Source of the DNA: Tubulanus polymorphus
Taxonomy: Eukaryota; Animalia; Nemertea
Direction of reading: 5' to 3'
Assembly: GCF_964204645.1 (NCBI RefSeq)
Contig: NC_134025.1
Location: forward strand, 12,586,001-12,650,000
DNA: 64,000 bases
In this document: positions 17,231-53,184 of the stretch, in pieces
How the letters are laid out: every line of letters begins with the position of its first letter
Position numbering within the stretch: position 1 is the stretch's first letter
Made by a program: the position numbers and the translations under genes
The notes under the pieces: generated by a model
What the model saw: only the letters and a program-made list of their open reading frames with translations
Databases searched by the model: none
What the model was told of the DNA's origin: nothing

Positions 17231-20200
17231 CATTATGAGTTTTCCGGTTTGCTCGGCTACCCGTACTGGCGGGGTAGTCTAGAGAGGCCAATGAAAACTC
17301 CGGTTTGCTAAACCACCCCTCTTTGCGGGGATGCGGTATGATGTTTGATCTGACAGTTTCAAGTGGTTAATGGCTGTTTCAAGTGCTTACAACGATGCTT
17401 ATTACTTCGTGGTACATGGTGGTTTAAAAAAAGATTTCATAATAATACGCTCACCGCGTGGGCTTCGTGGAAAGACCTGTGACCTTCCCAAATTTTAATT
17501 GTCTTGTCCGATTTGGTTTCATCCAATTGAGAGACTGCCTTTTCCAGTTAGGGCATTTTTGGATCACGTCACTCCAGGAAAGGACTTAACGCTTTTGGGC
17601 CCCTTCGTCGGTTCCACATGTTTCATTTGAGCTATAGACCACAATGGTGACACCATGATGGTCAGTAACTGACCAATTGAGATATCCCCGAGTCTGAACA
17701 CTTGACTTCGAATTTCGGAAATTTATCATGTAATGTTTGTTTTCAAACTACTAAGGAATCATCATTGCAAATTCATCACTGACCATCACTGACCACCAAT
17801 GACCAATTCAAACTTCTCCAATATGAAAACGATATACCGCGTTATGGTGTCAAACTAGAAAGGATTCGCCATTGAAAATTCATAAATTGACCATCACTGA
17901 CCACCACTGACCAATTGCAACTTCTTGAAAGAACGATATACCGGTACCGCATTTGGTGTGAAACTAGAAAGGATTCGCCATTAAATTTCATAAATTGACC
18001 ATCACTGACCACCACTGCCCAAGTGAAACTTCTCAAATATCGTGGTCGAATTCGAAAGTGCTTGTCGTCGTATTGCTATTTCTAGAAACCAGCAGAAAGT
18101 TTTGCTACTGTTTTTGAATGGCGTTGACATGATGGAAATTTATTACCCATAAATGGGTTACACATCTGGATCACAGCACCTCACTTGCCGCAGTGCATTA
18201 TTTTCACTGCATAGTAATGCTAATACATAAACTTTTTTACTACTTGACTCGAATCATCTGAACAGTACTGCGTTTGAAAACTCAACGAATAGAAAATGTT
18301 TGCGGGAAGCGCCTACAAATAAGTTATAATAAGATTAATTAATCGATGCATGAAAAACAATTAAATCACAAGGTGACTAACACCCGTCTTTCAACCAATC
18401 TGCGCGATACCAATTAATTAAATCATTAAACGCATTTGGGTTCCTAATATTTGAAATCATGTGATACAATAGTTGTTCTTTAGACTTGGCCACTTTCATT
18501 TCAGAAAACCGCGTACTAGACCAGTGATCACCGAGGCAATAACCATTCCTTCAAGTTATGAAAATTCGATGGTAACGCGGATTCTTCGCCTCTAAAAACT
18601 GTTTCGTTAATAGTTTTCTTTATATGAAAAGTGTTCATAGGAATTGAAATTTGGAGCGATATCAGTCACAGCTGTAACCCTTTTTCATTGTCAGTTCTTT
18701 TTTGGAATTCAAGTAGATTAGTGAAAATATCAATGATGAAGTTCACTTATTATATCAAGTACCGTTTTTACTGTCGCATGCGAGTCGAAACAAAAAGATC
18801 TATCCAACTATATATATCTTCGGGTATAAACTGTGATATCCTTCAGTATGTTATGAATATCTTTAAAAATTTGTGTTCTAGTATAATACCCGAAGGTTTA
18901 ACTATCGGACACATAAAAGATTCGCCATAATCAAAGTTTTTAAGAAAATCTTTCTTCGAGAAAGAAAGATCTTTAAAAGAACGATTGGCGTCAAACTAAT
19001 CCATAATGGACTGTTGTGAATTTATTGAATAATCCACCTGAGAAATTTTAAGATTTCGAAGCGAAATTTATTCATATAAATCAAAAATGCATGAATAACT
19101 TGACGTTATTTGCGGGTCTCATGAAACACTTTCGTGCGCTCTTTTTAAATCTAAAATAGCATAAATACATGCGTGTTTCGTTATAAACACGGTTAAATTC
19201 CAAACGCACATGAAATATGGAGCCTGCATCACACGATATACACATCTTGAATTTTCTCTAACTACGTAGGCCCTTTCCAAATGGGAATTGTTCAGTTTTT
19301 TAACGGCCGACATTCAGAGGCACCTAAAAAAACCGGTTGTATAGCACTTGAGATTTTCAATGTAGGGCACATCTCACATCGACTCGGCTCGCGGTCGGTG
19401 GTTTAATGGGAACACAACTGGTTGTTACTAGTTTAACAGTTGACGAATTCAGAAAACTTTTTTCAAATGTCTTTGATAACTTTTTAAACATAGTATTCTT
19501 CTTAGTTACATTTCGCTGATTCCATAGATATTTTTTCATGAAAATTGCTCCAGTTATAACGGATTTAAACATACATGTAAAATGATTATTTTCAAAATAT
19601 TCTATTTTCTCCGATTTTGAAGAAATTCTGACACAATATCATCTCCACTCGACACATGATTTTACTTCGGCGCCTTTGAAGGGAGTGTCACTTGTTGTTG
19701 AGTTCATATTTAGTCAAACAAGAAGATATGCCTGATTCCTTTTTAGAATTTAGATTTCGACGGATATCATCAAATTACTAGAAAGGGACAGCAGCTTTCG
19801 GTCATCCGCAAAAAAATACCTAAAATGCTCTCCTAGGGTTATGGAAAAACATGTCACGAAACATACAGAAAATCCTTTGTTTGATAGACTGAAATAATTG
19901 AACTCTTAAATAGCAACATTCAGAGAAACAAAAACATAAGAATATATTCTCGCCCACCCTTTAAAAAAACAACGTGATTTCAATTGAAGATGACACGTAG
20001 CCTCATATCAAATGATATGAACGCAACAGAGCCTATTCATTCTCTTTACGAGGATGGGTCTCCACATTCATAGGATACGATACGAGATTCGTGGGTACGA
20101 ATGATGAATACAACTGATAAAGCGCCAATTTCACTGATTCTTGCACATAAAGGTGTTTTAGAGTAATCTAGTTAACAGGTGTGTTTTAGGAGTATTTTGA

Positions 20201-34900: not shown

Positions 34901-35534
34901 CATCCCGCAAACATTTTCTATTCGTTGAGTTTTCAAACGCAGTACTGTTCAGATGATTCGAGTCAAGTAGTAAAAAAGTTTATGTATTAGCATTACTATG
35001 CAGTGAAAATAACGCACTGCGGCAAGTGAGGTGCTGTGATCCAGATGTGTAACCCATTTATGGGTAATAAATTTCCATCATGTCAACGCCATTCAAAAAC
35101 AGTAGCAAAACTTTCTGCTGGTTTCTAGAAATAGCAATACGACGACAAGCACTTTCGAATTCGACCACGATATTTGAGAAGTTTCGCTGGTGGTCAGTGA
35201 TGGTCAATTTATGAATTTTAATGGCGAATCCTTTCTAGTTTCACACCAAAAGCGGTACCGGTATATCGTTCTTTCAAGAAGTTTCAATTGGTCAGTGGTG
35301 GTCAGTGATGGTCAATTTATGAATTTTCAATGGCGAATCCTTTCTAGTTTGACACCATAACGCGGTATATCGTTTTCATATTGGAGAAGTTTGAATTGGT
35401 CATTGGTGGTCAGTGATGGTCAGTGATGAATTTGCAATGATGATTCCTTAGAGGTTTGAAAACAAACATTACATGATAAATTTCCGAAATTCGAAGTCAA
35501 GTGGTCAGACTCGGGGATATCTCAATTGGTCAGT

Positions 35535-35947
35535 AGTAATTAGAAGATGGCGTTTTCAGATCAGCGGTCGAGCGGTCGAGACACCACTCATCACCACAAG
35601 TAATTTTTTTCCCTAATAAATGGGGGAGAATGAACACCAGCCAGAAAACAATAATGTTAATAAAAATCAATATTATTGCCAATATTGTAAAAAATACATT
35701 GATAAATCCCAAAAATCACGACATGAAAAAACTGCAAATCATATAAAAAATGTAATAGATTTTGAAACTCCAGAAAATTCCAATGAAAGAAAAGAACGAT
35801 TAGAAAATATGAATGTGGATGAAATAAAATGTGAAGTTTGTAATGAATTTATAGAAAAAAGGAATTATAATAGACATCTCGAATCACAAAAACACCATCA
35901 AAATTTAAGTAATAATGTTTTAGGAAAAGAATATTTCGATGATAAAC
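35535..35947 (+). repeat. Left terminal inverted repeat (413 bp)
   Basis: Reverse complement of 52323-52735; at least 3 mismatches seen. Confidence 0.93.
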
Positions 35948-38900
35948 CTCAAAAAGTAAAAAAACCAACTTCAAAAACTAAATCCATTTCAAATAAACCT
36001 TACATGGAAAATGTTAGAAATTATATTGATTCACTAGAAATAAAAGATACAATTGAAATTTTAGAAACATTACATAGTAAAATTGGTCCTGCGGCTATTA
36101 TATTTAGATTCTTTAAAGGTACAACAATAGAAGATTATAGTAAATTTAATGAAATAATAGAAAAAATACTAGATTTGATAACAGATGTTGAATATCCAAA
36201 AATTAGTATCTCTGGGAAAGTAAGTTTTATAAAGTCAGAAGAAAAAATGAATTATAATATTCAAACACTCTCTGAAGAAATAATTTCAAAAACACAAATA
36301 AAAGAGAAGTTAGAAAAAATATTAAATGAATTTAAACGTCATATTGAAGAAAGATATTTTGAGGGTTCTGGCTTAACATTGAATGAAATTATATATTTAG
36401 ATTTAAATGTTTACAATACAAAAAGAAATAAAACATCAAAAAGTAAAACAATGTTTAAAAATGATTCAAACTTTACAACAGAAAAGGATATTAAAGCATC
36501 ATCTTATATTAAATTATCATTAACGACAAAAGCAGTAATAAATATTCAAAATGAAGATAATAAATGTTTTCTATGGTCAATTATTAGTTGCTTACATCCA
36601 ACACAGGAAAATGTTTGTAGGATAACAGATTATCGGAAATATGAAACATTATATAAAATTGATCAATATCCAGTAACTATAAAAATGATACCCAAAATAG
36701 AAAAAATTAATAAGTTAAAAATAAATGTATTCGAATTAATGCAATTACCAAAGACAAAAGGTGAAAATATTAAAGATTATACATTGGAAGCTTTATATTT
36801 AACAGAATATTATGATGATGAAAATGCTATAGATTTGTTATATTACAAAAAAGATGAAAATGAACATTATATGTGGTTAAAACAAATTGATTTATTCTTT
36901 AGAACAGAAAGTGATTTTAACAGCCATAAAATTTATCTATGTAGAAAATGTTTATCTAAATTTAGAACTGAGAATGCGTTACTAAAACATAAAGAATTAT
37001 GTGATAATAAAGATTTTTGTAAATTAATAATGCCAACAGAAAAAGATTATAAATAGAAATTTACTAATCATAAATTTAAAAATATTGTTCCATTTGTAAT
37101 TTATGGGGATTTTGAATCGTTGAATAAAGAATTAACTGATCAAGATAGAAAAGAAATATATAACAAAAAGCAATTATTAAAATCAATGGATAAAGGAAAT
37201 GAATTAAATGAAGACACAATACAAGACCCACCAATTATAAATACAATTAAAAAAGTTCATCAAAGAGCTGCTGCTTATGGAATTTACATCAAATCAAATT
37301 ATCCCGAATTATATGAAAGTCAATATATTTCTTTTAGAGGTGAAAATGTAGTTAATGATTTTTGTGATAAAATGATTGAATTAGAAAGTGATTTTGCAAA
37401 ATTATTAAACAAAAATAAAAGAATAGTTATGACAAAAGAAGATGAAATTGATTTTAATTATGCAACTCATTGTTGTTATTGTGAAAAACGTTTTTATTCA
37501 TTTGATAAAAAAGTTAGAGATCATGATCATTTGAATTCAAAATATCGTGGAGCTGCTCATGAAGATTGCAATTTACAAGCTAAAAAAGTTAATTTCGTAC
37601 CAATATTATTTCATAATTTATCAGGCTATGATACCCATCTATTTATAAAACAATTATCAAAGAAATTGGGCGCAATTAATCAGGAAATAGAAGAATATAA
37701 CGCTATGAATGAAGCAAATGTAAGAAAATATGATTTTAAACTATTAGCTAAAACATCTGAAAATTATATTTCATTTCAATTTGGTTGCATTAGATTTTTA
37801 GATTCTTATAGATTTCTAGCAAGTTCATTAGATAATTTATCAAAAAGTTTAGTTGATAATGATTTTGTTATAACTCGATATTATTATCCAAATGAACAAG
37901 ATTTTAAATTATTGAGATATAAAGGCGCAATTCCTTATTCATTTTATAAAACACACAATGATTTTAATGTAACAGAATTATTAAAAGATCAATTTTATGA
38001 TCAATTAAAAGAGGAGTATGTGAAAGATGAAGTGTTTAATAGAACATTAAATATTTGGAACCATTTTAAGATGAAAAATCATGGCGAATTAGTTGATTTA
38101 TATTTAAAATCAGACGTTATGATATTGGCTGACATATTTGAAAAATTTAGAGAAGTTAATTTGAATCATTTTAATGTTGATCCTTGTTATTGTTATTCAA
38201 GTCCTGGTTTAACCTGGCAATGTGGTTTAAAATATACAAATGTAGAATTAGATTTATTAAAAGAACCAGATATGGTTTTATTATTTGAAAAATCAATTAG
38301 AGGTGGAATTAGTGGTGTTATGGGAGATAGGTATTTTAAAGCAAATGATGAATACAAATTATTATATATTGACGCCAATAATTTATATGGTTGGGCAATG
38401 ATGCAACCTCAACCATATAAAAATTTTATATTAACAGAAGTTGAAAATGGTGATAAAACTGATTGGGAAAGCGCAATTGCGAGTTTAAAAGATGAAGCAC
38501 CAATTGGTTATTTCTTCGTAGTTGATTTAGAATATCCTGAAAATATAAAGTTTAAAACTAGAAACTTACCTTATTGCCCAGAACATTTAACTGTAGATGA
38601 TAGTTATTTAAGTGAATACCAGAAGATAATAAAACCGAAAGATCATGTTTTTACAGAAAAATTAATACTTACTCAAAATAATAAATACAATTATATTGTT
38701 CATTATAGAATGTTAAAATTTTATCTAAAACAAGGAATGAAATTAAAGAAAGTACATAGATATATTGAATTTAATCAATCGAAGTGGTTAGAAAAATATA
38801 TAGATTTCAATACTCAACAGAGAACCATATCAAAAACAGATTTTGAAAAAGATTTCTTCAAATTAATGAACAATAGTTTTTATGGTAAAACATGTGAAAA

Positions 38901-40396
38901 TATTAGAAATAGAAATGATATTGAATTAGTAAATAATTCTGAAAGATTAAGACATTTACAATCAAGTCCTAGACATTTAGGAAATAAAAGATTTGAAGAT
39001 TATTTAACAGCAGTTAAATTAAAAAGAACATCAATGAAATTTAATAAACCTATATTTATAGGTTCGACTGTTTTAGAAGTATCAAAATTATCAATGTATG
39101 ATTTTTATTATAATGTTTTACAACCACTTTTTGGGGAAAAGCATATTGAAATATTATATTTTGATTCTGTAACAGCTGACACCCCAATATTATTAAAATG
39201 TAATGATAAAATATTGATAAGAAGAATTTCAGAAATAATTCCAAAACAAAATGAATGTTATATTTCATATGGAGAAAAAGAATTAATACAAATAAATGGT
39301 TTAATGGATGTTTGGACAAGAAATGGATGGAAAAAATTAAAGAATATTATTAGACATAAAACAAATAAGAAAATCTATAGAGTTAGAACTAAATTAGGAT
39401 TTGTAGATGTTACAGAAGATCATAGTTTAATTAAACGAAATGGCGATGAAATAAAACCAACTGATATAAAAATTGGAGATGAATTATTGCATAAAAGATT
39501 TTTCCAAAGAATGAATCATATGTCATTTGATGAAATTATTGATAATATTTATAATATAGAACCCGAAACATTAGAAGAAAAAGAATATTTTATCAAAGGA
39601 TTTTTCATGGGTGATGGTTCAGCAGGTGTGTATAATTATGTTAATCGCACTCAATATTGCTGGTATTTATGCAATCAAGACTTAAAATTATTAGAAAGAA
39701 TTAAGAAATTCTGTGAAGAAGTTTATTCACATAAAACATTCAAAATCATAGATGTTATGAAATCATCGCAATGTTATAGAATACTTGTAAATAATCCTAA
39801 AGATTTTAAGCCATGTAGAAAATGAGTTAACAGAAGAAGTTAAGGATTTATTTGAAATACATAACCCATCAGATTATGTTTATGATTTATCAACTGAAGA
39901 TGGTACATTTAACTGTGGATTTCCATTAATAGCGGTCAATACTGACGCCTACATACTAAAAATCAAGACAAATGACATAACAAAAGACTTAAAAACATTA
40001 AAACATTATTTTGAATTTAGCTATTATCCTAAAGATCATGAACTATTTAGCAATGATAATAAAAAGATTCCTGGTAAATTTAAAGATGAATTAGGGGGTG
40101 ATGAAATGATTGAATTTGTTGGGATAAGAAGTAAAATGTATAGTTACAGAACAAAAGATCATGAAGCTAAAAAGTTAAAAGGAATAACAAAACATGTGGT
40201 TGATAAACATATAGAATTTCAAGATTATATAAAGTGTTTATATAAATCAATTGTTATGAAACACAAAATGAATTGTTTAAGATCAGAAGATCATGAGATG
40301 TACATTAATGAAGTTGAAAAAACTAGTTTAAATCCATTTGATGATAAAAGGCATATTTTAGATGATGGTATAAAAACATTACCTTATGGCCATTAA
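35620..40396 (+). pseudogene. polB: Protein-primed family B DNA polymerase (pPolB) with N-terminal Zn fingers, an endonuclease VII-like insert and an intein; disrupted
   Basis: ORFs 35620-37056 and 37120-39825 are in the same frame, separated by one TAG (37054). Motifs: ExoI YGDFES, EndoVII-like VRDHDH..YRGAAHEDCN, ExoII FHNLSGYD, ExoIII YLKSDV, motif A YIDANNLYG, motif B KLMNNSFYGK, motif C YFD|TD, then GKFKDE and RSKMY. There is a frameshift at ~39810. Confidence 0.93.
39166..39940 (+). mobile_element. Intein (pol-c insertion site) with a partially deleted LAGLIDADG homing endonuclease
   Basis: N-junction ILYFD|SVTADTPILL (block A), VDVTEDHSLI (block B, TxxH), KGFFMGDGSA (LAGLIDADG block C), YVYDLSTEDGTF (block F) and LIAVN|TDAY (terminal Asn, +1 Thr). 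Removing it restores YFDTD. Confidence 0.92.
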
Positions 40397-41708
40397 AACA
40401 TAAAATCAATATCATCATACTCGAAATCACTATTGGCTTCTTCATTTTCATTTAATTGTTCAGGTTCTTCTTCCATTCCATTTTTCTCATTTAAATAAAG
40501 TTCTATCTTGTTCCACATTTCATCTCGCTCTCTTTGTTTCTTTTTGTTTGTTAATTCGTCAAATGGAATTATAATATCTAGGTTTAAATAATTTACAATC
40601 TTATTTAAAAAGAATTCATAAATTATTGAATCTGTTATTCTATTTTCCAAATGATACATTAATATTTGTTTGAATATTTTTTTTATATTTTCCATATCTT
40701 CTTCTGTTAATTTAGGTTTTTCATAATAATCGTTAAATAATAAATATAAATACATTTTCTTTTGTTTTGTGTTAAATGTTGGCGGAATAATTGTTTTTAT
40801 AATATCTTTTTTGTTATTTCACCATTTTCATTTTCTATTATTTTCATTTTTTCAAGCCATTGCATATATTCTGGAGTATGATCTTCCATAGAAAATATTT
40901 TAAAAATTTCATCTAGATAATTCAATTTTGGATCTATGAGAAAATCTCTAGTTTTTTCTTCACCCAATAAATTCTTTTGCCATCCACATTCATTACAAAA
41001 TAACACAGTACCTTCTTGTCTTAAGGTCGCATAACTACATTGTGGACATTTTCGTTTATAATTTACTGGTAATAGATCTTCATTAAGCTCTTGGTATTTT
41101 CTTAAGTTTTCTTTATGTTTTATTGTTCTATTATGTAGATTTGAATTACTTGTTGTAATAATCAATTTACAATATTTACAATAATATGTTTTTCTTGTTA
41201 ATTCATTATATTGTTTTTCTAACTTTTCAACTGTTTCTTCATTATCTGGTAACGTTTTCTCATATTTTATTTTTTCTAATAAATTATTTTTTCTTTCATT
41301 AAATTCAGTTTCAAATTTATTATAAATTTTATATATATGTACTTTACGAAATTGATGATTCTCCCAATCTTCTATATTTTCAGGGCTATATTTTATTCGA
41401 CAAGGCTCGCAGAAATGATCTTTTATATTATCCTTATCATAGAAAAAGAAAGGTCTTTTCCAAATAACTTCAGGTTCAACTTCAGCAGAATTACTATTAC
41501 TTTCATTACTATCAACATTGGCCGTTGCGCCATTAATTCTACACTTATCTGAATGTTTTTTAACATAATTTCTTGAGAATGATTTATTACATTTTGGACA
41601 GTTTATTTTAGGGGGTTTATAATTTTCATCATGTTTTTTCATATGTCGAGCCATATTACTTTTTCTTAGAAGTTCATCACAAATTTCACATGCTATCTTC
41701 TCATCCAT
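40393..41708 (-). pseudogene. Multi-zinc-finger protein (probably one ORF, frameshifted at a homopolymer near 40810)
   Basis: ORF 40797-41708 has several CxxC...H/C fingers. An open alternative frame (KDIIKTIIPPTFNTKQKKM) links it to ORF 40393-40755. Confidence 0.65.
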
Positions 41709-41776
41709 TTATTTAGGAAAAATTTTATTAAAATTAATTTTTAGTGATGAGCGGTAATTTTTTTATGTTATAAATA

Positions 41777-42533
41777 ATGGTAGAATTAAAAGAATACAGA
41801 ATATTTGTTGATTCTAGAAAACTTAAAAATTATAAATCACATAATTTACTAGTACAATTAGATAGAGAATTTAAGAATTGTGTTGATTTAAAATTAGTAA
41901 ATATAAGTTTATGTAACTCATTTTACAATATATCGGATAAAACTCTTGAACATAGTCTTTTTAATTTTTAATAAAAATAATCATAAATGGTTTCATCTAT
42001 TTTTAAAACCAGGGTTATATAATTTAGAAACATTAGCCCAAGAAATTAATCGGAAAGCACGATTAAAACTTGAAAGTGAAGATAAATTTTCAATTAGATT
42101 TATAAAAAGTGATAGTTCTGATAAAATTAAAATAAAGTTAGATGATGAAAGCAAACATGCATTTATGGTAAGGAAACCTTTAGCTAAACTGTTAGGAATT
42201 AAACCACAAATTGTTACAGGAAACGTAGACGGTAATTCAAATATAATACCTTTTACACATTTTTATATTTATTGCAATTTAATCGATCCTACAAAAACAT
42301 TTGAAGCAACTAAAGATACAACATGTAATTCTAGTATATTAAATATTTTACCAATGAAGAACGTTAAACAATTTGGAACTCAAATAAATTATAATTTAAC
42401 TGAATGTGATTTCAAACCTTGTATTCCACATTTCAATAATTTTAAATTAGAAATAAGAAATCATAATGGATATTTAATTGATTTGAATAACTTTCCTGTA
42501 ATTTATGAATTAGTCATAAGATGTAAAGAGTAA
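41777..42533 (+). pseudogene. Minor capsid protein (penton, single jelly roll), frameshifted near 41950
   Basis: Motifs IFVDSR..., NSFYNI, PGLYNLETL...IN, LAKLLG, FYIYCNLI and LEIRNHNGYLIDLN follow the Polinton/NCLDV penton pattern as remembered. Confidence 0.7.
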
Positions 42534-42549
42534 TTTTTTCATTATATAA

Positions 42550-43050
42550 ATGAATATAACTGTTGGACCGAGTATATGTTTTGGGTTTGATTTTAAACGT
42601 GAGAAAGAAATGAAATTTAACATTAATGATGTAATTACACATATCAAAAATATTGCATTTTCTAATGAAACAACATTTGAGTATGAAACAACAATAGATA
42701 AAGAAACTTTAAATGTAGAAAAGATTACTAATTTAATTAGAGAATCTTTAAGATTTTATGAATTAGATGAAGATTTTATCATAGATGATATCAAAAACAT
42801 ATTATCCAAAATATATGATAATCATAAAAGTAGTAAAATCAAGTGGATAATAACTGGATTATATAATGGCGCCTTACTATCAGTTGCAACTGATGGTTAT
42901 TCAATGGTATTAAAAAAAGTATTCAAAATGGGAAGTGTTAATGTTGATAGATTTGATATAAATGATATTTTAAAATTAACATTAGCAGTTACTTTATCTA
43001 ATTTAACTATTGATTATTTGGAAAAACAAAAATATATTCCTCCCATATAA
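42550..43050 (+). CDS. Hypothetical Maverick protein (166 aa, hydrophobic C-terminal helices)
   Basis: Intact ORF with a T-tract/TAAATG start. Confidence 0.7.
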   Translation: MNITVGPSICFGFDFKREKEMKFNINDVITHIKNIAFSNETTFEYETTIDKETLNVEKITNLIRESLRFYELDEDFIIDDIKNILSKIYDNHKSSKIKWIITGLYNGALLSVATDGYSMVLKKVFKMGSVNVDRFDINDILKLTLAVTLSNLTIDYLEKQKYIPPI

Positions 43051-43055
43051 ATACA

Positions 43056-43077
43056 TAATTTTTTTGTTAAATAAATG
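43056..43077 (+). promoter_or_regulatory. Representative conserved promoter/initiator motif AAT(6-7)-N(5-7)-TAAATG found at most Maverick ORF starts
   Basis: The same architecture occurs at starts 35620, 41708(-), 42550, 43075, 43516, 43967, 45372, 46696, 50411, 51794(-) and 52650(-). TAAATG with little or no T-tract occurs at 47966, 49095/49675 and 50949. Confidence 0.8.
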
Positions 43078-43497
43078 GCTTCTGCAATTATAACTATTAT
43101 AGGATCGGCAATTGTTAACGCTTTGGCATTTACTGGTGGTGGATATTTATTTAAACATATTGATAAAAATAGTTCATTAGGAGAACAAAGAAGACATAAC
43201 TTAGCATTAGAGAAATATAATAAAGCTGCAGAAGAATATAGAGAAAAACGACAAAACTATATGGATTATATTAACAAGGAATTATATGATCAGAAGATTT
43301 CACATAGAGATTTTCAATCAGTTGATGATGCAATGAGTTTATATAACGCGGTAACCAATAAAGAAAAATTACATCTATACAAACCTAAATTATCAGATTA
43401 TTATACCCCAAGTAAAGAACAACAGAAATATGAAATAATATGGATTTTAGGTGGAACTGTTATTGTTATATTTGTTGCTTATAAGTTTACTAATTAG
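43075..43497 (+). CDS. Hypothetical membrane-associated virion protein (140 aa)
   Basis: N-terminal amphipathic/hydrophobic segment, EQRRHN plus coiled coil, C-terminal TM; TAAATG start. Confidence 0.7.
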   Translation: MASAIITIIGSAIVNALAFTGGGYLFKHIDKNSSLGEQRRHNLALEKYNKAAEEYREKRQNYMDYINKELYDQKISHRDFQSVDDAMSLYNAVTNKEKLHLYKPKLSDYYTPSKEQQKYEIIWILGGTVIVIFVAYKFTN

Positions 43498-43515
43498 TAA
43501 TTTTTTTCTAAATAA

Positions 43516-43977
43516 ATGGAAGATAAAGTTGATAGTATTGATATTATTCCTCATGATATAAATAAAACTAAATTAAAAACATATTTAGAAAAACAAATAT
43601 TAGAATTTGAAAGTGACTTAAAGATAAAAAAGAAAAAATATTTAAAAAGTAAAATTATATATTATTTGATTATAAGTGGTTCGGTTACAATTAGTTCTGT
43701 AATAACATTTCTAGTAATATTCAGTCCATTAACACCTTTAGCTATATCAATTGGTGTGTTAGGATTAAGTTCAAGTGTTTTAACCGGAATAAGTTCAAAA
43801 TTGAATATAAAAAGTAATAAAGAAAAAATAAAATCTAATATAAAAGAAATTAATAAATTAAAGAATACACTAGATTATATAATAAGTTTAAATGGCCATA
43901 TAACAGTTGAAGAACAAGATAAATTATTAAAAGAATTAATAAATTATAAATTTTTTAATTATATAAATGGTAGATAG
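43516..43977 (+). CDS. Hypothetical two-TM coiled-coil protein (153 aa)
   Basis: Intact ORF with a central hydrophobic hairpin; TAAATG start. Confidence 0.7.
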   Translation: MEDKVDSIDIIPHDINKTKLKTYLEKQILEFESDLKIKKKKYLKSKIIYYLIISGSVTISSVITFLVIFSPLTPLAISIGVLGLSSSVLTGISSKLNIKSNKEKIKSNIKEINKLKNTLDYIISLNGHITVEEQDKLLKELINYKFFNYINGR

Positions 43978-45355
43978 TTTTCCAAAAGCTTTCCAATATA
44001 ATAAATCAATTAAATATAATATTCCAGCAACAGATTTTAATAAAGATATTACATATAGAAATAAAGTTTTAGATTCATTAACTAATTTAGAAATTTATGT
44101 TACTGAAACTAATAATTTTAATGCAAAGATGGAAAATATATTTCATGTATATTTAATTAATTTTAAAAAATTGAAAGATGAAAAACAATGGTTATTGAAA
44201 TCTAATATGAAGTATTGGCAGAACCAATTAAATTTTGCTGTTTATTGTGCAACAACAGGATGTGGAATTAGTTGGAATGATCATTTGAATAATTCTAAAT
44301 ATAAATTAATTCAAAGTTTATTTAGATTTCATACATACTTTCAAATCAGAATAATATTAAATGAATTAGAGTGCGCTTTACCAGGATCTAGATATTTTAA
44401 AGAATTAGATAATAATATTAATTTATCTAAGTTTTATAAGATTTGCAATGAATTTAATATAGATATAAATAATTCTGATTTTAGAACAAAAATTGGAACA
44501 ATAAGATCACTTCCTTGCCCTAAAAAGGTTGCAGAATATTGTGCACTTCCCATACCATCTAATAGTTTTTATAATATCTATAATAATAAATTAGGTTATG
44601 GTAAAATAGAAACTAAGGATTTAGAAACATTAAATTTCAATAAATTACCGAAATTTTATGATCATTTTAAACAAGAAAACAATAATGGTTGGGTTTATTT
44701 TATTTTAGAAAATAGTGAAGGTTTTACTAAATCAGGTATAGAAAGAATAAATCAATCTATTAGAACTTATTTGATTTGTATTCTAGGATCACAAGTTGAA
44801 ACAAGATCACCGATAATTGGAAATTTGAATACATCATTCGACACACAAAAACAATTTAAAGTATTATTTGAAGATTCCATACATAATGATAAAAATAGAT
44901 CGATTCCAGAAAACATTATTAGATATCAAAATTATTTAGATAAATCACATATTAGATTAAATTATTGTATAGGCCCTAATCTATTAATTATTTCTAATGA
45001 TTTAGTATTAAAGATGGGAAATATAATTGGTTATAATAATCTAATTAAAACTGCGACAATAAATAATTCATTTGGGTTAAATGATATAAATAAAAAGATT
45101 ATCACTGCTCCAAAATTAATGGAAGGTGAAAAAAATAAAAAACATATTCAATCAACAGAAACTAAAACTAAGAATATTAAATTGGATAATGATTCCAAAA
45201 TAAAAGATTACAATACTACAGAAAATATTAAAACTGATAATATTCAACATGATATAATTAAAACTGATAATGACAATAAATCCCATGAAAATACTAAATT
45301 AGCTATAACTTGTATAGGAATTGTAATCGGAGGAATATTATATTTTAAATTTTAA
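43967..45355 (+). CDS. Hypothetical Maverick protein (462 aa, C-terminal TM)
   Basis: Long intact ORF containing WQNQLNFAVYCATTGCGIS and FRFHTYFQIR; function not recognised. Confidence 0.75.
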   Translation: MVDSFPKAFQYNKSIKYNIPATDFNKDITYRNKVLDSLTNLEIYVTETNNFNAKMENIFHVYLINFKKLKDEKQWLLKSNMKYWQNQLNFAVYCATTGCGISWNDHLNNSKYKLIQSLFRFHTYFQIRIILNELECALPGSRYFKELDNNINLSKFYKICNEFNIDINNSDFRTKIGTIRSLPCPKKVAEYCALPIPSNSFYNIYNNKLGYGKIETKDLETLNFNKLPKFYDHFKQENNNGWVYFILENSEGFTKSGIERINQSIRTYLICILGSQVETRSPIIGNLNTSFDTQKQFKVLFEDSIHNDKNRSIPENIIRYQNYLDKSHIRLNYCIGPNLLIISNDLVLKMGNIIGYNNLIKTATINNSFGLNDINKKIITAPKLMEGEKNKKHIQSTETKTKNIKLDNDSKIKDYNTTENIKTDNIQHDIIKTDNDNKSHENTKLAITCIGIVIGGILYFKF

Positions 45356-45371
45356 TTTTTTTATTATATAA

Positions 45372-46671
45372 ATGGATGTAGAAGGTGGAGAAGGTTTTCC
45401 ATTGGATCCTTTAGATGAACCTGGTATAAGTGATGAACAACCACCTGATTTTGATGAAACACGTTTTAATGACGGTAATGACCCAGAATATAATAATAAT
45501 TTAAATATGCCTGATTATATTAAAAATGCTGAATCACAATTAGATCCTGAAAATTTAGACCCATATTTAGTAAAAGAAGATTTAGATAATAAAAACAAAA
45601 TAGCTAAATTAGAAGATTTAATTAAAAAATCTAAACTTAACATAAATGATGAAGACGTTGGACCTTTAGCAGATCAATTAAGATTTTTAGATAATGGTAA
45701 ATGTTATTATCATTTGAAAGATGATTGTTATATTGCTATCACTCATAAAGATAATAAAAATAAAATATTAACAAAATCAACTTTGAGTGATTTACATCCA
45801 GATAGAATTAGAAGAATAAGTAATATTAATGATATAGAAGAATATTTAACACAAACAGAAATGAATAAAAATAGAGAAGTATTTAAACAAAGAATTAATG
45901 AATTATTTGAAATAATCAAAAAGAAATCAGAAACAGAAACAACTTCTGAACAGAATATAACTTCCAAAAATAGTAAACTTAAATCAAATAAAGTTCCGAT
46001 TGAAAAACTATTACCGAATAGATTACTTGATGCAACAGATCAAGAATTAGAAGATTTAGATATATTTTCTGATAAAGCAATTAGAGAGATTATTAGTATA
46101 AGAAATGCATCTGATAAAATTGCGCATGATAAAAGTATAAGAGATTTTAAAATTAGAACTTTAGAAAAAGTTAACTGATAAAAATAAAGAAATAGAACAA
46201 TTAAAATTAGATAGAGATAATAAAGTTATTGAAGAAATTGAATTTAAAAAAAGAAATACATATTTAGAAAAAGAAAAAGATGATTTAGAATATAACATAG
46301 AATTACAAAAAGAAGAAATTAAATTATTATTAAAATCATATGATTATAATAATAATAGATTAAAAGTTATTTTTAAAGATTTGTTGATAAAACCAGATTC
46401 TAAAATATCATTGAAAGATAGAATAAAGTTATTGTTTAAATTAGAAGGAATAACAATTCTTTCAATTCTAACAGCTGTAACTATGTTATTTACAACAATT
46501 GGTTTAGCTATATCAAATGCTTTAAAATCTACTCCTACTCCCACTCCCAATAAACCAGATAAACCCCCAGGTAATAATTCTATACAAGATAAAGTTAAGG
46601 ATGGTTTTTTTATTTTTTATTACAGTTGTAAGTGCTATTATTTTTGGGTAAGTAAACATGATCAAAAATAA
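45372..46671 (+). pseudogene. Acidic/coiled-coil protein with a C-terminal hydrophobic segment; disrupted
   Basis: ORF 45372-46178 continues after a frameshift into the frame ending in ORF 46381-46671 (LKDRIKLLFKLEGITILSILTA). Confidence 0.6.
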
Positions 46672-46695
46672 AGAATTAATTTTTTTGTTAAATAA

Positions 46696-47935
46696 ATGAG
46701 TGGGAGTTATATAAGTCCTTCTAAGATTTCTAGAATATCTAATAAGCAGAAAGATCACATCGTATAATTACTCATAACCCTTCAAATATTAATCCCGATG
46801 AAACTTTATATGTTAGAATTCCTAGATTAACACAAAATACTTTTTATGTTCCAAATAGTATTTATTTATCAGCCGATATAAAAGTAACTGGCCATGATAA
46901 CAATTATGTTGTTGATAATGTTGGAAGATATTTGATTAAGAAATTAACTATAAAGATTGGTCCGGAAACAGTTTTCTCATTAGATGATTATAATTTATTT
47001 ATGCATTATAAAGATTTATGGTTAACTAAAGAAAATAGAAATAATATGATATTTCAAGGCATCCAATCGGAAAACCATAATAAATTAAGATCAGGAGCTA
47101 ATGACGCAATAGTAACTCGTGCCGCAGATAATTTGATTAAAAAGATTTATGGAAGCAAATATAAAATTCCATTAGATTTTGAATTGATAAATAATAATGC
47201 ACCTTTATATAAATACGCAATTCAAGAAGATATTATATTTGAGATAACATTTGCTCCTGTAAATGAAATTGTATTATCTAGCGTTGTTAAAGATATGAGT
47301 TATAAATTATCGAATATATGTTTAGAATATGATACAGTAACTGATGAAAATATTTCAAGTATAATTCAAACTCAATACAATCAAGGATTTTCATTATTAT
47401 ATGATTATATTGATAAATTTAAAACCGTAACTATTAATGCAAATGATGAAATAATTAATGAGAATATTAACTTCCCAAGAAGATCTATTAAAGGTATATT
47501 AATATTTTTTACCATTGCAACATATTCTAATGGCGCAATAAGGTAGATAATTATTATAATCCTGAAATAACAAAAGTAGAAATAACTATCGAAGGAATAG
47601 CAAATAAAATATTTTGCCAAGGAATGAGAATGATAGATCAGTGGCCAGAAATTAGAAAACATTTTATGAATGAAAAAGTAAAATCATTTGAAAATTGTAA
47701 TATTAATCAAATTGATTATTATACCGGCAATAAATATGCATTATGGTTAGATTTTAGAACAACAGAGGATAATTCATTACATGGTTCTGGGAAAAAACTA
47801 CAGAACACTAAAGATGGAATACAATTATTCATGAAAAAGAAAAAAGGAAGCTTAAATTTTAAAATGCATATTTATATTATATCTGACGCGCAATTAAATA
47901 TTGTAAATTCACAATTAGATAGTATTCAATATTAG
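46696..47935 (+). pseudogene. Major capsid protein (double jelly roll), frameshifted near 46750 and 47540
   Basis: Reconstructed to about 410 aa: THNPSNINPDETLYVRIPRL...NVGRYLIKKLTIKI...YKDLW...KIPLDF...ICLEYD...PRRSIKGIL...YYNPEITKVEITIEG...LWLDFRT..DNSLHGSG...SDAQLNI. It is beta-rich and of MCP size, and starts at a TAAATG (46696). Confidence 0.75.
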
Positions 47936-47965
47936 AAATATAAAGTTAAAATTAAGGATATATAA

Positions 47966-49094
47966 ATGGGTGGTAAAAAAACTCCTAATACTAAAGAACA
48001 ATATTTAAGAAATTTATATTACAACCCTGAGAGTTCGGTTGCTTATTCTTCTACTAAAAATATGTGGCGTAAAGTAAAACAAGATAAATTAGATAAGATA
48101 ATCCCACAAAATTTAGTTAAATATAAAGATATAAATGAATTTATGTTAGAACAACCAACATATACAACACATAAAAAAATTGTTAGAAAATATAAAACTC
48201 GTAAAACTATGGTAAGTTATGTAGATCAACAGTGGCAAGGAGATTTAATTGATATGAAAAATGTTAAGAAAGATAATGATGATTATTGGTGGTTATTGAA
48301 TATGATTGATATTTTTAGTCGTTATGTATGGAGCTTCCCACTTTATAGAAAAGATGCTGTACAAACATCAAATGTTTTAAGAAAATTTCTTTCGGATGAT
48401 AAACTAAAACCAGAAAGAAATACAATTTGATGATGGAAAAGAGTTTGATAATTCACTTGTTCATGAACTCTTAGACAATCATAATATTGAATATTTTTCA
48501 ACAAAATCGGATAAAAAAGCAGCAGTTGTTGAACGATTTAATAGAACATTAAGAACAAGAATGTGGAAATATTTTACAGCAAATAATACTTTTAAATGGA
48601 TTGATGTTTTGCCAAAATTGATAGAAGGATATAATAATTCTTATCATTCTTCTATTGGAATGAAACCTATTGATGCTAGAAAACCTGAAAATGCTGAAAT
48701 TGTTTGGAATAATTTATATGGAGCATTTCTTGTAGATGATTTTGGTGAACCTAAATTTAAAGTTGGTCAAAATGTGAGAATTTCTAAGTATAAAAAGATA
48801 TTTGATAAAGGATACGATCGAAATTTTACTAGAGAAATATATAAAATAAAAAAGGTAATAACAACAAAACCATATGTCTATAAATTAGAAGATTTAGATG
48901 GTGAAGAAGTTGATGGCTACTTTTACGAAGAAGAATTAAGTTTAACTACTGAAAATCTAGAACAAGAATATAAAATTGAAAAAGTATTAAAAACAAAAAC
49001 TATTAAAGGAAAAAAATATTCTTTAGTAAAATGGGTTGGATGGCCAGATAAATTCAATGAATGGATATTATCAAGTAAAATTAAAAATATATAA
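47966..49094 (+). pseudogene. Retroviral-like (rve) integrase with C-terminal chromodomain, frameshifted near 48418
   Basis: DDE triad WQGDLIDM / QFDDGKEF / VVERFNRT, then YNNSYHSSIGMKP. Chromodomain YKIEKVLK...SLVKWVGWPDKFNEWI. Confidence 0.92.
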
Positions 49095-49920
49095 ATGAAT
49101 AAGGAATTATTCATATTTGAGCCTCATAATATGTTAATTTCTGGTGTAACAAATTGTGGAAAAACTTATTTTAGATTAAATTTATTAGAAATTGTTTATG
49201 AAAACTATTTTGATAATATAGTATTATTTTGTCCAACATATGAATTTAATCAAACTTATGATAGAAATATTACTAGGAATAATAAATTTATTATATTAGA
49301 TCCTAAAACAGTAAAAGAAAATTTAGATAATTGTATTAAAAGTTGGTCAAAATGTGAGAATTTCTAAGTATAAAAAGATATTTGATAAAGGATACGATCG
49401 AAATTTTACTAGAGAAATATATAAAATAAAAAAGGTAATAACAACAAAACCATATGTCTATAAATTAGAAGATTTAGATGGTGAAGAAGTTGATGGCTAC
49501 TTTTACGAAGAAGAATTAAGTTTAACTACTGAAAATCTAGAACAAGAATATAAAATTGAAAAAGTATTAAAAACAAAAACTATTAAAGGAAAAAAATATT
49601 CTTTAGTAAAATGGGTTGGATGGCCAGATAAATTCAATGAATGGATATTATCAAGTAAAATTAAAAATATATAAATGAATAAGGAATTATTCATATTTGA
49701 GCCTCATAATATGTTAATTTCTGGTGTAACAAATTGTGGAAAAACTTATTTTATATTAAATTTATTAGAAACTGTTTATGAAAACTATTTTGATAATATA
49801 GTATTATTTTGTCCAACATATGAATTTAATCAAACTTATGATAGAAATATTACTAGGAATAATAAATTTATTATATTAGATCCTAAAACAGTAAAAGAAA
49901 ATTTAGATAATTGTATTAAA
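48761..49920 (+). repeat. 580-bp tandem duplication (integrase 3' end plus ATPase 5' end)
   Basis: 48761-49340 matches 49341-49920 with at least 2 substitutions. It creates partial ORFs 49095-49367 and 49354-49674. Confidence 0.93.
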
Positions 49921-50245
49921 ATAGCAATTGATATTTGTAAAGGATCAAATACATTATTCATTATAGATGATTGTGCTAATCTACATGATTCAAAAGTTAG
50001 AGAAAGTGAATTATGCTATTTAGCTTTCTCTGGGAGACATTTTGGGATAACAACTTGGGTTTTAAATCAAAAATATAATTCAATTGTTAAAGACTTTAGA
50101 GAAAACATTAGATTTCTAGTTTTATTCTACAATAAAGATAGAAAATCTGTGAATATATAATGAATATATGGATAAGTTGAAAAATATTAAAAGATCAAAA
50201 TTATTATTTAGATTACAACACCCATTTAAATATGAATTTATTTAA
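49675..50245 (+). pseudogene. A32/FtsK-HerA-like DNA packaging ATPase, disrupted near 50155
   Basis: Walker A GVTNCGKT, Walker B LFIIDD, arginine finger SGRH and the NQKY motif. A C-terminal tail lies in another frame and ends at 50245. Confidence 0.88.
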
Positions 50246-50410
50246 ATTCAATTAGTTTGTTAATCTAGTTGAATTCTAGTTATTAGTATTTGTAACAAAA
50301 ATCAAATAGATTTAACAATATTTCAACTAGCTTGTTAATCTAGTTAAATTCTAGTTACATTCTAGTTAAATTCTAGTTGCAACATCACAACTAATTTTTT
50401 TGTTATATAA

Positions 50411-51016
50411 ATGGTAGGTGAAAAGAAAATAAAATCTAAAAATGGTGATGTTCCAATTGAAAAAACTTTAGATGATTTAGGAATAACAGAAAACAAATTA
50501 ATTCCAGATGATGGTGCTTTAAATAATGTTACAACAAATAATAATTATGAATATTATCTTTATTGCAAACATCAATTAGAAATATTAATAGCATCTGGAA
50601 AATGTAAAAAATTTGTCGATAAAAATTTAACTTATAATGAATTAGATGCAATGAAATCAAATGAAATTATTAGATTATTTAAGATTTATGAAGCCGCGAG
50701 AACAGCTAAAATTAATGACGCGATATCAGAAAATGTAGTAAAAGGTTATAGTAAATTATGTAATTATATACTACCAATTGAAAATGAAAATAGATTATAT
50801 TCCGATTTAAAAAATGACTATTTAGTTATGACTGAATTAAATAAATGGATTGGATATTCATCATTTCAATTAGGTGGATTTATGACATTATTATCAACCG
50901 GGGTTATAACATTTTCAAATATTGAAAGTAAAAATATTTCTATAATAAATGAGCGAAGTGAAAGAAGCGAAGGAATTAACTGTGAAGAAAAAACCGAGAA
51001 CTCAGAAACAAATTGA
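50411..51016 (+). CDS. Hypothetical Maverick protein (201 aa)
   Basis: Intact ORF with a T-tract/TAAATG start. Confidence 0.7.
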   Translation: MVGEKKIKSKNGDVPIEKTLDDLGITENKLIPDDGALNNVTTNNNYEYYLYCKHQLEILIASGKCKKFVDKNLTYNELDAMKSNEIIRLFKIYEAARTAKINDAISENVVKGYSKLCNYILPIENENRLYSDLKNDYLVMTELNKWIGYSSFQLGGFMTLLSTGVITFSNIESKNISIINERSERSEGINCEEKTENSETN

Positions 51017-51359
51017 ATGGTCTCGGCAATTAGGAATTAAATCACAAGAATATAAAAAAGCTGTAAAAGAAAAAATGAGTAATAAAAATGTTAATAAAAA
51101 TGGTGAAAATATTGTTATTTCTACTCCTTCTGATAGTAGAATATTTGATAAATATTTATATTTTACAGTTGGATTTGTAATTGTATTCATTTTGATTGGG
51201 TGTGATTGGTATAAGAAATCAAATAAAATTCATGATGTTAGTAATTCTGAACCAACTGCTATCAAAAATGAAAGTACTTCTGAAATTCCAAAATTGATAA
51301 TAAAAAAATGGATTAATATTTTAGAAAAAAAGCAAAAAAAAATAATTTTTTTTAATTAA
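50949..51359 (+). CDS. Hypothetical basic protein with a TM segment (136 aa)
   Basis: KKKPRTQKQIEWSRQLG followed by YLYFTVGFVIVFILIG; TAAATG start. Confidence 0.62.
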   Translation: MSEVKEAKELTVKKKPRTQKQIEWSRQLGIKSQEYKKAVKEKMSNKNVNKNGENIVISTPSDSRIFDKYLYFTVGFVIVFILIGCDWYKKSNKIHDVSNSEPTAIKNESTSEIPKLIIKKWINILEKKQKKIIFFN

Positions 51360-51467
51360 TTGAATATCTCACTACTTTTGTCTATCTATGCGGAGCAATC
51401 AAATTGTCCAGATAAGTCATTTCGGATTCTAGATATTCATTATTTTTATTAATTTATTTTTTTTAAT

Positions 51468-51794
51468 TTAATCAACAATTTCTAAATCATGATGGCCGTC
51501 TTCATTTTTTCCATGATAGATTATTTTAGATCCTTCTAAATCTTTTAATTCCTCTGTACTCAATGAAACCCATTTATCAGGTAAAAATACTTTAAATTCT
51601 CGCGATGTACTAACATTACAGTAGCTTAAATTAGCTGATACTTTCTCTCCATATTTAGTTTTTATCTTTTTAATTTCAATATTTTATGTTCAATTTCTTT
51701 TGTAACATCAACTAACTTTTTTATTTCAAATTGTTTTTTTTGCTGGTTTTATTCTGTTATTTATTGTTGCTAAGAATGTTTTTCTATCTCCCAT
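51468..51794 (-). pseudogene. Small (~108 aa) beta-rich protein missed by the ORF track; frameshifted
   Basis: TAAATG start at 51794 (MGDRKTFLATINNRIK...). The C-terminal frame reads IKKIKTKYGEKVSANL...FKVFLPDKW...KIIYHGKNEDGHHDLEIVD*. Confidence 0.6.
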
Positions 51795-52104
51795 TTATAA
51801 GGAAAACAAATTACTTGTGGTTAAGAGTGGGGATTACTTCCCCCTGTATATAACAAGCGCGCTATTAACCGTTCTCACCCAAGCCTCACAGCATCTATTT
51901 ATCCGGGTACAGTTGACACGCAATCACTGTACTACTACAGTAATAGCACACGCGTTAACCGTTCTCAGTAGAGACTCACTGTATCGATCTATCCACGCGC
52001 AGTTGTTGTTACGCGCACTCACTGTATATGTGTGTCACAGAGCAATCGTCCGTTCTCACTAGAGCCTAGCTGTGATGAGTGGTGTCTCGTACCCGGTTGA
52101 ATTA

Positions 52105-52650
52105 TTATTTTGAGTTATGATATTTTGAATTAAGATGGTGTGATTTATTGCTTCGAGTATAATATTTTCAACAATCACATAACACTTTTTCATTAGGTTC
52201 ATATTTAGGTGTAACAATTTCATTATCTAAGTTACATTGAACTGCAACATCTTTATATGATTTTTCATTATCTAATTCACATTGAATACCAATATTTGAT
52301 GAATTTTCATTATAGATAATTTGTTTATCATCGAAATAATCTTTTCCTAAAACATTATTACTTAAATTTTGATGGTGTTTTTGTGATTCGAGATGTCTAT
52401 TATAATTCCTTTTTGTTATAAATTCATTACAAACTTCACATTTTATTTCATCCACATTCATATTTTCTAATCGTTCTTTTCTTTCATTGGAATTTTCTGG
52501 AGTTTCAAAATCTATTACATTTTTTATATGATTTGCAGTTTTTTCATGTCGTGATTTTTGGGATTTATCAATGTATTTTTTACAATATTGGCAATAATAT
52601 TGATTTTTATTAACATTATTGTTTTCTGGCTGGTGTTCATTCTCCCCCAT
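52105..52650 (-). pseudogene. Zinc-finger protein sharing its first ~109 aa with pPolB via the TIR; premature TGA at 52168-52170
   Basis: Reading through the stop completes a third finger: CDC*KYYTRSNKSHHLNSKYH. Confidence 0.7.
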
Positions 52651-52735
52651 TTATTAGGGAAAAAAATTACTTGTGGTGATGAGTGGTGTCTCGACCGCTC
52701 GACCGCTGATCTGAAAACGCCATCTTCTAATTACT
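52323..52735 (-). repeat. Right terminal inverted repeat (413 bp)
   Basis: Reverse complement of 35535-35947. Confidence 0.93.
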
Positions 52736-53184
52736 GTCAGTTACTGACCATCATGGTGTCACCATTGTGGTCTATAGCTCAAATGAAACATGTGGAACCG
52801 ACGAAGGGGCCCAAAAGCGTTAAGTCATTTCCTGGAGTGAAGTGATCCAAAAATGCCCTAACTGGAAAAGGCAGTCTCTCAATTGGATGAAACCAAATCG
52901 GACAGGACAATTAAAATTTGGGAAGGCCACAGGCAGTGGTCTTTCTACGAAGCCCACGCGGTGAGCGTATTATTATGAAATCTTTTTTTAAACCACCATG
53001 TACCACGAAGTAATAAGCATCGTTGTAAGCACTTGAAACAGCCATTAACCACTTGAAACTGTCAGATCAAACATCACACCGCATCCCCGCAAAGAGGGGT
53101 GGTTCAGCAAACCGGAGTTTTCATTAGCCTCTCTAGACTACCCCGCCAGTACGGGTAGCCGAGCAAACCGGAAAACTCATAATG

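Follow-up and report, generated by a model that had tools for sequence, protein, structure and literature searches.

The insert that splits motif C of a Maverick DNA polymerase in the window (the whole 64,000-nt stretch of DNA analysed here) is probably a deletion-damaged member of a family of Maverick motif-C inteins. The motif-C inteins of large DNA viruses were likely the source of this family, in a single ancient capture, and homing between related Mavericks has likely sustained it since. The chemistry and the insertion site are known; what is new is the host protein class, a protein-primed DNA polymerase (pPolB), and the genomic setting. The window intein sits in an endogenous viral gene and not in a host gene, and inteins of Maverick polymerases are apparently an undescribed family.

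The 775-nt insert interrupts the Maverick pPolB at YFD|TDA and contains the splicing-block residues Ser1, TEDH, YVYDL, a terminal Asn and a +1 Thr, as well as one LAGLIDADG-type motif (Table 1). Its boundaries are fixed independently by the closest intein-free pPolB among the matches listed, P0135, which reads YFDTDS and is 86% identical upstream and 82% identical downstream, and by 10 host-species reads that skip exactly 775 nt. With P0135 and the skipping reads, the original prediction of an insert that splits motif C and carries intein blocks and one LAGLIDADG motif was borne out. All of the blocks that it named are present, but it understated the damage. Since 775 is not divisible by 3, the N- and C-terminal blocks lie in separate frames. 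Against complete relatives, the first piece of the window intein covers residues 1 to ~210 and the last piece ~307-350. The window copy thus lacks some 90-100 residues, among them the second LAGLIDADG motif; its frame shifts near 39,806, and another in-frame stop interrupts the pPolB gene at 37,054-37,056. With its second endonuclease motif and its reading frame gone, the window copy is, as read from its sequence, able neither to splice nor to home.

Table 1. Features of the window, with positions counted from its first letter.
Feature	Position	Strand	Remarks
Host CYP46A1-like P450 gene	417..1309	-	four exons; AG/GT splice sites
Uninterrupted paralogue of the split host repeat	17231..18676	-	empty site at 17,668-17,673; hexamer present once
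Left target-site duplication	35529..35534	+	6 bp, GTCAGT
Integrated Maverick/Polinton	35535..52735		17,201 bp; ~24% GC (host ~36% GC)
Left terminal inverted repeat	35535..35947	+	413 nt; 99.3% identity to right repeat
pPolB gene	35620..40396	+	PF03175; Endonuclease VII-like insertion; motif C split by intein
Intein insert	39166..39940	+	775 nt; motif C (YFD|TDA); broken near 39,806
Block A	39166..39186	+	SVTADTP, Ser1 first
Block B	39412..39423	+	TxxH (TEDH)
First LAGLIDADG-type motif	39589..39618	+	FIKGFFMGDG; second motif absent from window copy
Blocks F and G	39875..39940	+	YVYDL ... terminal Asn; frame differs from blocks A and B
C-extein	39941..40396	+	+1 Thr first; 82% identity to intein-free P0135
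VLTF3-like gene	40393..40818	-	PF04947, E 2e-5, slightly below cut-off
Probable major capsid protein gene	46746..47935	+	two frames; weak Capsid_N match, E 0.004
Retroviral-type integrase and chromodomain	47966..49094	+	two frames; rve and Chromo below cut-offs
A32-type packaging ATPase	49675..50160	+	PF04665, E 4e-13
Right terminal inverted repeat	52323..52735	-	
Right target-site duplication	52736..52741	+	6 bp, GTCAGT

On its own, the window intein piece stays below the Pfam cut-offs (Intein_splicing 23.3 vs 35.8 bits; LAGLIDADG_3 16.5 vs 22.5) and has one LAGLIDADG motif where two would be expected. It does match the intein-endonuclease PI-PkoII (E 4e-6). The profile search by which the original prediction was to be checked is therefore sub-threshold for the window piece, yet the inteins of P0001 and P0186, two complete relatives, score above the Intein_splicing threshold. 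In the window intein, the residue before the terminal Asn is Val. A penultimate His is frequent in class 1 inteins and not universal: complete pPolB inteins have His (4/7), Lys (2/7) or Ser (1/7), and Lys is found in 153 of 245 viral PolB relatives. The site name 'pol-c' stands for a motif-C insertion. The sequence features support the classification of the insert as a canonical motif-C (pol-c type) LAGLIDADG intein. A Hedgehog/Hint domain of animal proteins was rejected, as an endonuclease domain and empty alleles are present; so were a spliceosomal intron, with protein motifs throughout and open frames in relatives, and a chance motif match.

Open inteins of 337-354 aa occupy the identical site in seven other pPolB lineages (P0001, P0002, P0003, P0186, P0423, P0432 and P0441). 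All seven are in frame and share Ser1, TxxH, blocks F/G, the terminal Asn and the +1 Thr. Two LAGLIDADG-type motifs were recognised by pattern in six of them; in P0003 the second is off-pattern but matches PF14528. When 18 sequences were used to fold the P0001 intein, the model reached a pLDDT of 88 and a pTM of 0.89. Its best PDB matches are the intein-endonucleases TliVMA, PI-PkoII and PI-PfuI (E 1e-17 to 1e-14), with I-DmoI also among the matches, and its best named viral matches (BFVD) are phycodnavirus, pandoravirus and megavirus PolBs. The complete relative P0001 is thus predicted, from this model, to have the Hint fold together with an endonuclease domain.

A search with the intein region matched 358 of 1,069 candidate proteins. 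Among the best 120 of these, pPolB-type proteins that have open inteins at this site take the first three places (48-50%); RNA-primed PolBs make up most of the remainder, and some are topoisomerase II. The best 120 of a second search (1,439 of 4,519 matched) added P0423, P0432 and P0441. When the exteins were searched (7,762 of 7,992 matched), the best 120 comprised 4 carriers, 108 intein-free proteins and 8 uncalled ones. The P0186 cluster has 136 members; of 15 listed, seven carry an open intein, in open proteins of 1,537-1,539 aa, six are free and two uncalled. For the P0002 cluster (121 members), the 15 listed include three with a whole intein, one free with identical flanks and 11 uncalled at the site. 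Neither JGI metagenome contigs, scanned with the P0001 intein and with P0423, nor IMG/VR, scanned with P0432, yielded a confirmed locus. The window intein piece found 18 loci in IMG/VR, 11 with the YGD|S start of the RNA-primed type and seven uncalled by pattern; the extein query found three, two intein-free and one uncalled. Named phages gave just two weak partial matches, and in Atlas only leads below 0.9 were obtained for P0186. An intein-free match at 62%, P0144, is a named Sulfurimonas protein in UniRef; it probably comes from a mis-binned eukaryotic or viral contig.

The carrier of the window intein has long terminal inverted repeats, a 6-bp target duplication, a pPolB, a retroviral-type integrase and a packaging ATPase, as is expected of a Maverick; a 6-bp target duplication is the norm for Mavericks/Polintons. 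The polymerase matches PF03175 at E 8e-21, and both this match and that to Pox_A32 pass the Pfam cut-offs. Among 20 ORFs of the element, no Pfam match to a maturation protease or a minor capsid protein was found, and some of the frame breaks in its genes could be sequencing errors. A 208-aa ORF at 41,907-42,533 (+) has no Pfam match; its position makes it a candidate minor capsid protein. The terminal repeat contains the start of the polymerase gene, and with it the zinc-finger N-terminus, which is thus found again in an ORF at the right end (52,168-52,650, -). Between 48,755 and 49,634, the end of the integrase and the start of the ATPase are duplicated exactly, with a spacing of 580 nt, either in reality or through an assembly error. 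The VLTF3-like gene at 40,393-40,818 (-) is a second giant-virus-type gene in this Maverick; such a gene is described for a subgroup of polintoviruses in the available text of PMC11131425.

The Maverick is inserted into one copy of a ~3-kb host repeat (17,231-20,424 and 32,788-35,534) with ~108-nt internal units, which reaches 60-200x single-copy depth in reads of run X6. Its flanks are 97.5% and 96.9% identical to the adjoining parts of the uninterrupted repeat at 17,231-18,676. The best solved relatives of the P450 at the left end of the window are CYP46A1 (E 6e-14, vs 4.5e-8 for the next family), and its last exon matches CYP46A1 only. Clan 46 P450s are treated as a metazoan clan in the available part of PMC8110760. 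As this intron-containing, CYP46A1-like gene lies in the same window, the contig is assigned to an animal. Among 202 flank ORFs scanned, three gave Pfam matches: the P450, a GIY-YIG domain and a weak PHD. The GIY-YIG-domain fragment at 8,454-9,377 (-) adjoins an RT-like frame and presumably belongs to a Penelope-like retroelement.

Given the terminal repeats, the 6-bp duplication, the empty-site paralogue and the CYP46-like gene in the window, the original prediction of a Maverick integrated in an animal genome holds. The join could instead be an assembly chimera, or the element a contaminant from a co-sequenced organism, as no listed contig or read piece was seen to bridge the left junction and sequencing errors may lie behind some of its frame breaks. 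We give this explanation practically no credence, since the 6-bp duplication is matched, the element is bounded by terminal repeats and the flanks rebuild an uninterrupted paralogue at 97%. In addition, a read run from a separate study with the same species label (X6) contains the single-copy flank together with tens of intein-bearing copies.

Of run X6, 12% was read and depth was taken in bins over flank, intein and exteins. Mean depth was 6.5-fold (4.9-7.8) in five low flank bins, 242-fold in eight intein bins and 384-fold in six extein bins. If the low bins represent single-copy DNA, this corresponds to ~37 (31-49) intein-bearing copies among ~59 mapped polymerase copies. Intein-free joins of the exteins are present in 50 reads at four listed joins, and the 10 reads that skip exactly 775 nt are among them. 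Intein-bearing and intein-free alleles thus coexist in the host species, as they do within two database clusters. At a depth of ~160, 123 reads at 39,807 and 95 at 39,805 continue with other sequence; as these reads run past the break, most intein copies must be longer than that of the window. About half of the sampled words occur in runs under one organism label (organism A); no RNA run was among those listed, which carries no information on expression. A contig of another read set, X1, matches 1,749 nt of flank with zero differences, and X1 is possibly the window's own source and not independent of it. Among the 40 differences listed of 382, which pool copies, 9/13 in the intein (p about 0.001 against 0.25) and 18/27 in the exteins are synonymous, and none is a stop.

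For the intein trees, 217 pattern-called inteins were reduced to 185 of 300-460 aa and then to 169 at 92% identity; with the first 212 residues of the window intein, this gave 170 rows. The pPolB inteins form one clade in this tree (SH-aLRT 99), in a quick tree of 60 rows under a mixture model (99), in a tree of 264 rows to which 94 of 99 new proteins were added (100), and in a careful tree of 50 rows chosen from the neighbours (100/100; stem 0.4). The sister of the window intein is P0423, at 64% identity (support 100/97). The clade as a whole is placed among the motif-C inteins of RNA-primed large-virus PolBs, with sister-group supports of 8, 67 and 86 in the 264-row tree. Over its first 212 aa, the window intein is 44-64% identical to other pPolB inteins and ~41-44% to the best-scoring RNA-primed PolB matches. 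The block G signature of all seven complete pPolB inteins also occurs in 56 of 245 viral PolB rows, including ChoanoV1 and three T4-like phage polymerases. The motif-C inteins of T4-like phage polymerases P0006, P0274 and P0290 group with eukaryotic large-virus inteins (100/95), which indicates that the intein family crosses between phages and giant viruses too.

Relatives in the RNA-primed PolBs of large DNA viruses had been predicted, and the relatives found in the searches are overwhelmingly of this kind. From nesting and numbers in trees that are unrooted and lack archaeal and iridoviral inteins, we infer that the direction was from large virus to Maverick. A giant-virus transfer into the immediate line of the window element, which had also been proposed, is not supported in that form, as its nearest relatives are other pPolB inteins in one deep clade. 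Of the tree pattern expected by the original prediction, the nesting among large-virus motif-C inteins is thus found, but the nearest kin of the intein are in Maverick pPolBs and its branching follows that of the polymerases. This deep clade and its branching point to an old capture, with another Maverick as the most likely nearest donor. A recent move from a giant virus into the window Maverick's own line, in an animal cell, would agree with the preponderance of homologues in large-virus PolBs. Animal cells also meet such inteins, as invertebrate iridoviruses have PolB inteins with an endonuclease according to the accessible part of PMC5784728. However, the closest relatives form a long-stemmed pPolB clade (stem 0.4), the GC content of the intein (25.5%) equals that of the exteins (24-26%), and two iridovirus inteins in that part of PMC5784728 have, by eye, Cys first and another block G. 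We regard a recent move as very improbable and, judging from the monophyly of the pPolB inteins, largely refuted. The history looks like an old, single capture with later homing between Mavericks rather than a fresh giant-virus transfer.

Whether the intein has spread or has merely been inherited bears on the second part of this account. One ancient insertion could have been followed by vertical descent and many precise losses, with an endonuclease that no longer homes and splicing alone kept. Inteins and exteins of the main family have diverged in step (identities 62/64, 66/60 and 80/76) and group alike; long vertical descent with numerous precise losses would give the same picture. Most close pPolB matches are intein-free (108 of the best 120, against 4 with an intein and 8 uncalled). 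On the polymerase tree, the carriers (7/57 rows) need seven changes, and on a second tree (10/39 rows) eight, counts that on an unrooted tree cannot separate gain from loss; on the second tree a single carrier clade is rejected (p-AU 3e-38). Yet vertical descent needs many exact deletions, and the two LAGLIDADG-type motifs are kept as described above. The extein of P0003 is 21-27% identical to those of other carriers and its intein 43-53%; as the intein is far closer than the extein, this points to a jump between pPolB families. The flanks of P0124 (with intein) and P0127 (without) are identical. P0186 agrees with five intein-free close relatives at 9-10/10 residues in nearly every stretch from -80 to -11, but at 5-6/10 beside the site. 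A Cys at -5 is found in 11/12 carrier rows of the P0186 family vs 4/99 free rows, a count that includes seven near-copies from one cluster. This patch and the Cys at -5 are as co-conversion would give. We therefore consider descent without homing unlikely.

The inteins also need not splice in the animal. They would then disable the polymerase, and carriers would be passengers that are copied by intein-free helpers or were converted after integration. Intein-free alleles in the same species and a window copy broken in several genes fit this explanation. It is nevertheless distinctly less plausible still, given frames that stay open and splicing residues that are conserved across 43-76% identity, the seven open carriers of the P0186 cluster and the mostly synonymous intein differences. 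Many intein-free pPolBs read YxDCD and not YxDTD at motif C, with YMDCDSF in 38/108 (P0135-P0254). YxDCD is a changed intein target site, and such alleles may reflect resistance to homing or plain drift.

In the account of old capture and later homing, the intein would have entered an ancestor of the pPolB family a single time, at a motif that RNA-primed PolBs have as well. Intein chemistry, the conserved residues and the open frames suggest that YxDTD is restored by post-translational splicing of the precursor; the site being catalytic, an unspliced polymerase would be dead. In a co-resident Maverick that lacks the intein, the endonuclease would then cut the DNA at motif C, and the ensuing repair would copy the intein along with a few flanking codons. 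The patchy presence, the retained endonuclease motifs and the flanking patch argue for such homing into empty alleles of close relatives. Homing partners would share a cell or a genome, and at least once the intein would have reached a distant pPolB family. Single copies degenerate, as has the one in the window. A bolder version holds that this is an active, giant-virus-derived intein that splices in animal cells, homes among dozens of germline Mavericks, co-evolves with resistant motif-C alleles and jumps families. We regard it as possible, though we lean somewhat against it; if true, animal nuclear DNA would for the first time have been shown to retain a protein intron that splices itself out and homes.

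The closest known systems are the PolB inteins of Mimivirus and other Nucleocytoviricota. In the accessible portions of PMC549080 and PMC5784728, these are ~350 aa long, with Ser first, Asn last, a +1 Thr, TxxH, a LAGLIDADG domain and a PolB host. The P0001 model matches megavirus, pandoravirus and phycodnavirus PolBs, and the ChoanoV1 PolB intein is 41% identical to that of P0003 and shares the block G signature. Their exteins are RNA-primed (PF00136), whereas that of the Maverick is protein-primed (PF03175), and the Maverick carrier, unlike them, is integrated many times over in an animal genome; the Mimivirus intein was compared by description only. Invertebrate iridoviruses, viruses of animal cells, have PolB or RNR inteins, some with an endonuclease (available parts of PMC549080, PMC4149023 and PMC5784728). 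These differ in their RNA-primed PolB, and the same parts do not report them as integrated. Two iridovirus PolB rows in the available part of PMC5784728 show, by eye, Cys first and a C-extein listed two residues later.

In nuclear scaffolds of Klebsormidium, Tetrabaena and Hondaea, inteins likewise enter the eukaryotic nucleus inside an endogenous viral DNA polymerase (accessible text of PMC10710043). The hosts, in contrast, are algae and protists, and the words 'polinton', 'animal' and 'metazoa' do not occur in its main text. Homing-endonuclease insertions in Polinton pPolBs, members of the same protein family, are suggested by the authors of PMC11161782 to originate from intein invasions. 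The window pPolB has an endonuclease insertion too, recognised by its Endonuclease VII-like match. The available part of PMC11161782 describes endonuclease domains only, while the Maverick intein has a full splicing domain in the catalytic motif and matched empty alleles. Animal Mavericks/Polintons, including VLTF3-bearing coral polintoviruses, share terminal repeats, pPolB, integrase, ATPase and VLTF3-like genes, and probably a capsid gene, with the window element (available texts of PMC11131425 and PMC8502044). The word 'intein' is absent from these texts, and no protease was detected in the window element (Pfam, 20 ORFs). In the accessible part of its supplement, a survey from 2018 has PolB inteins for invertebrate iridoviruses and no intein for Metazoa (PMC5784728). 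Across the open-access literature, with subscription papers and some supplements outside its scope, no intein was found reported in a protein-primed polymerase, a Polinton or an animal nuclear genome.

Integrating viruses do, then, bring inteins into the nuclear DNA of animals, where they reach tens of copies. The family preserves the trace of an old encounter, within one cell, between an ancestral Polinton and a large DNA virus; it also provides a concrete case for the proposal that the endonuclease insertions of Polinton polymerases stem from intein invasions. With matched filled and empty alleles in one species, homing among dispersed copies becomes testable, as does the question why inteins are not found in animal host genes.

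Inteins related to this family also occur after a DxD motif in topoisomerase II-like proteins (P0074, P0075, P0088, P0090, P0282, P0342 and P0368). In P0255-P0272 and others, two or three family inteins lie in a single large-virus PolB, at the motif B and motif C sites.
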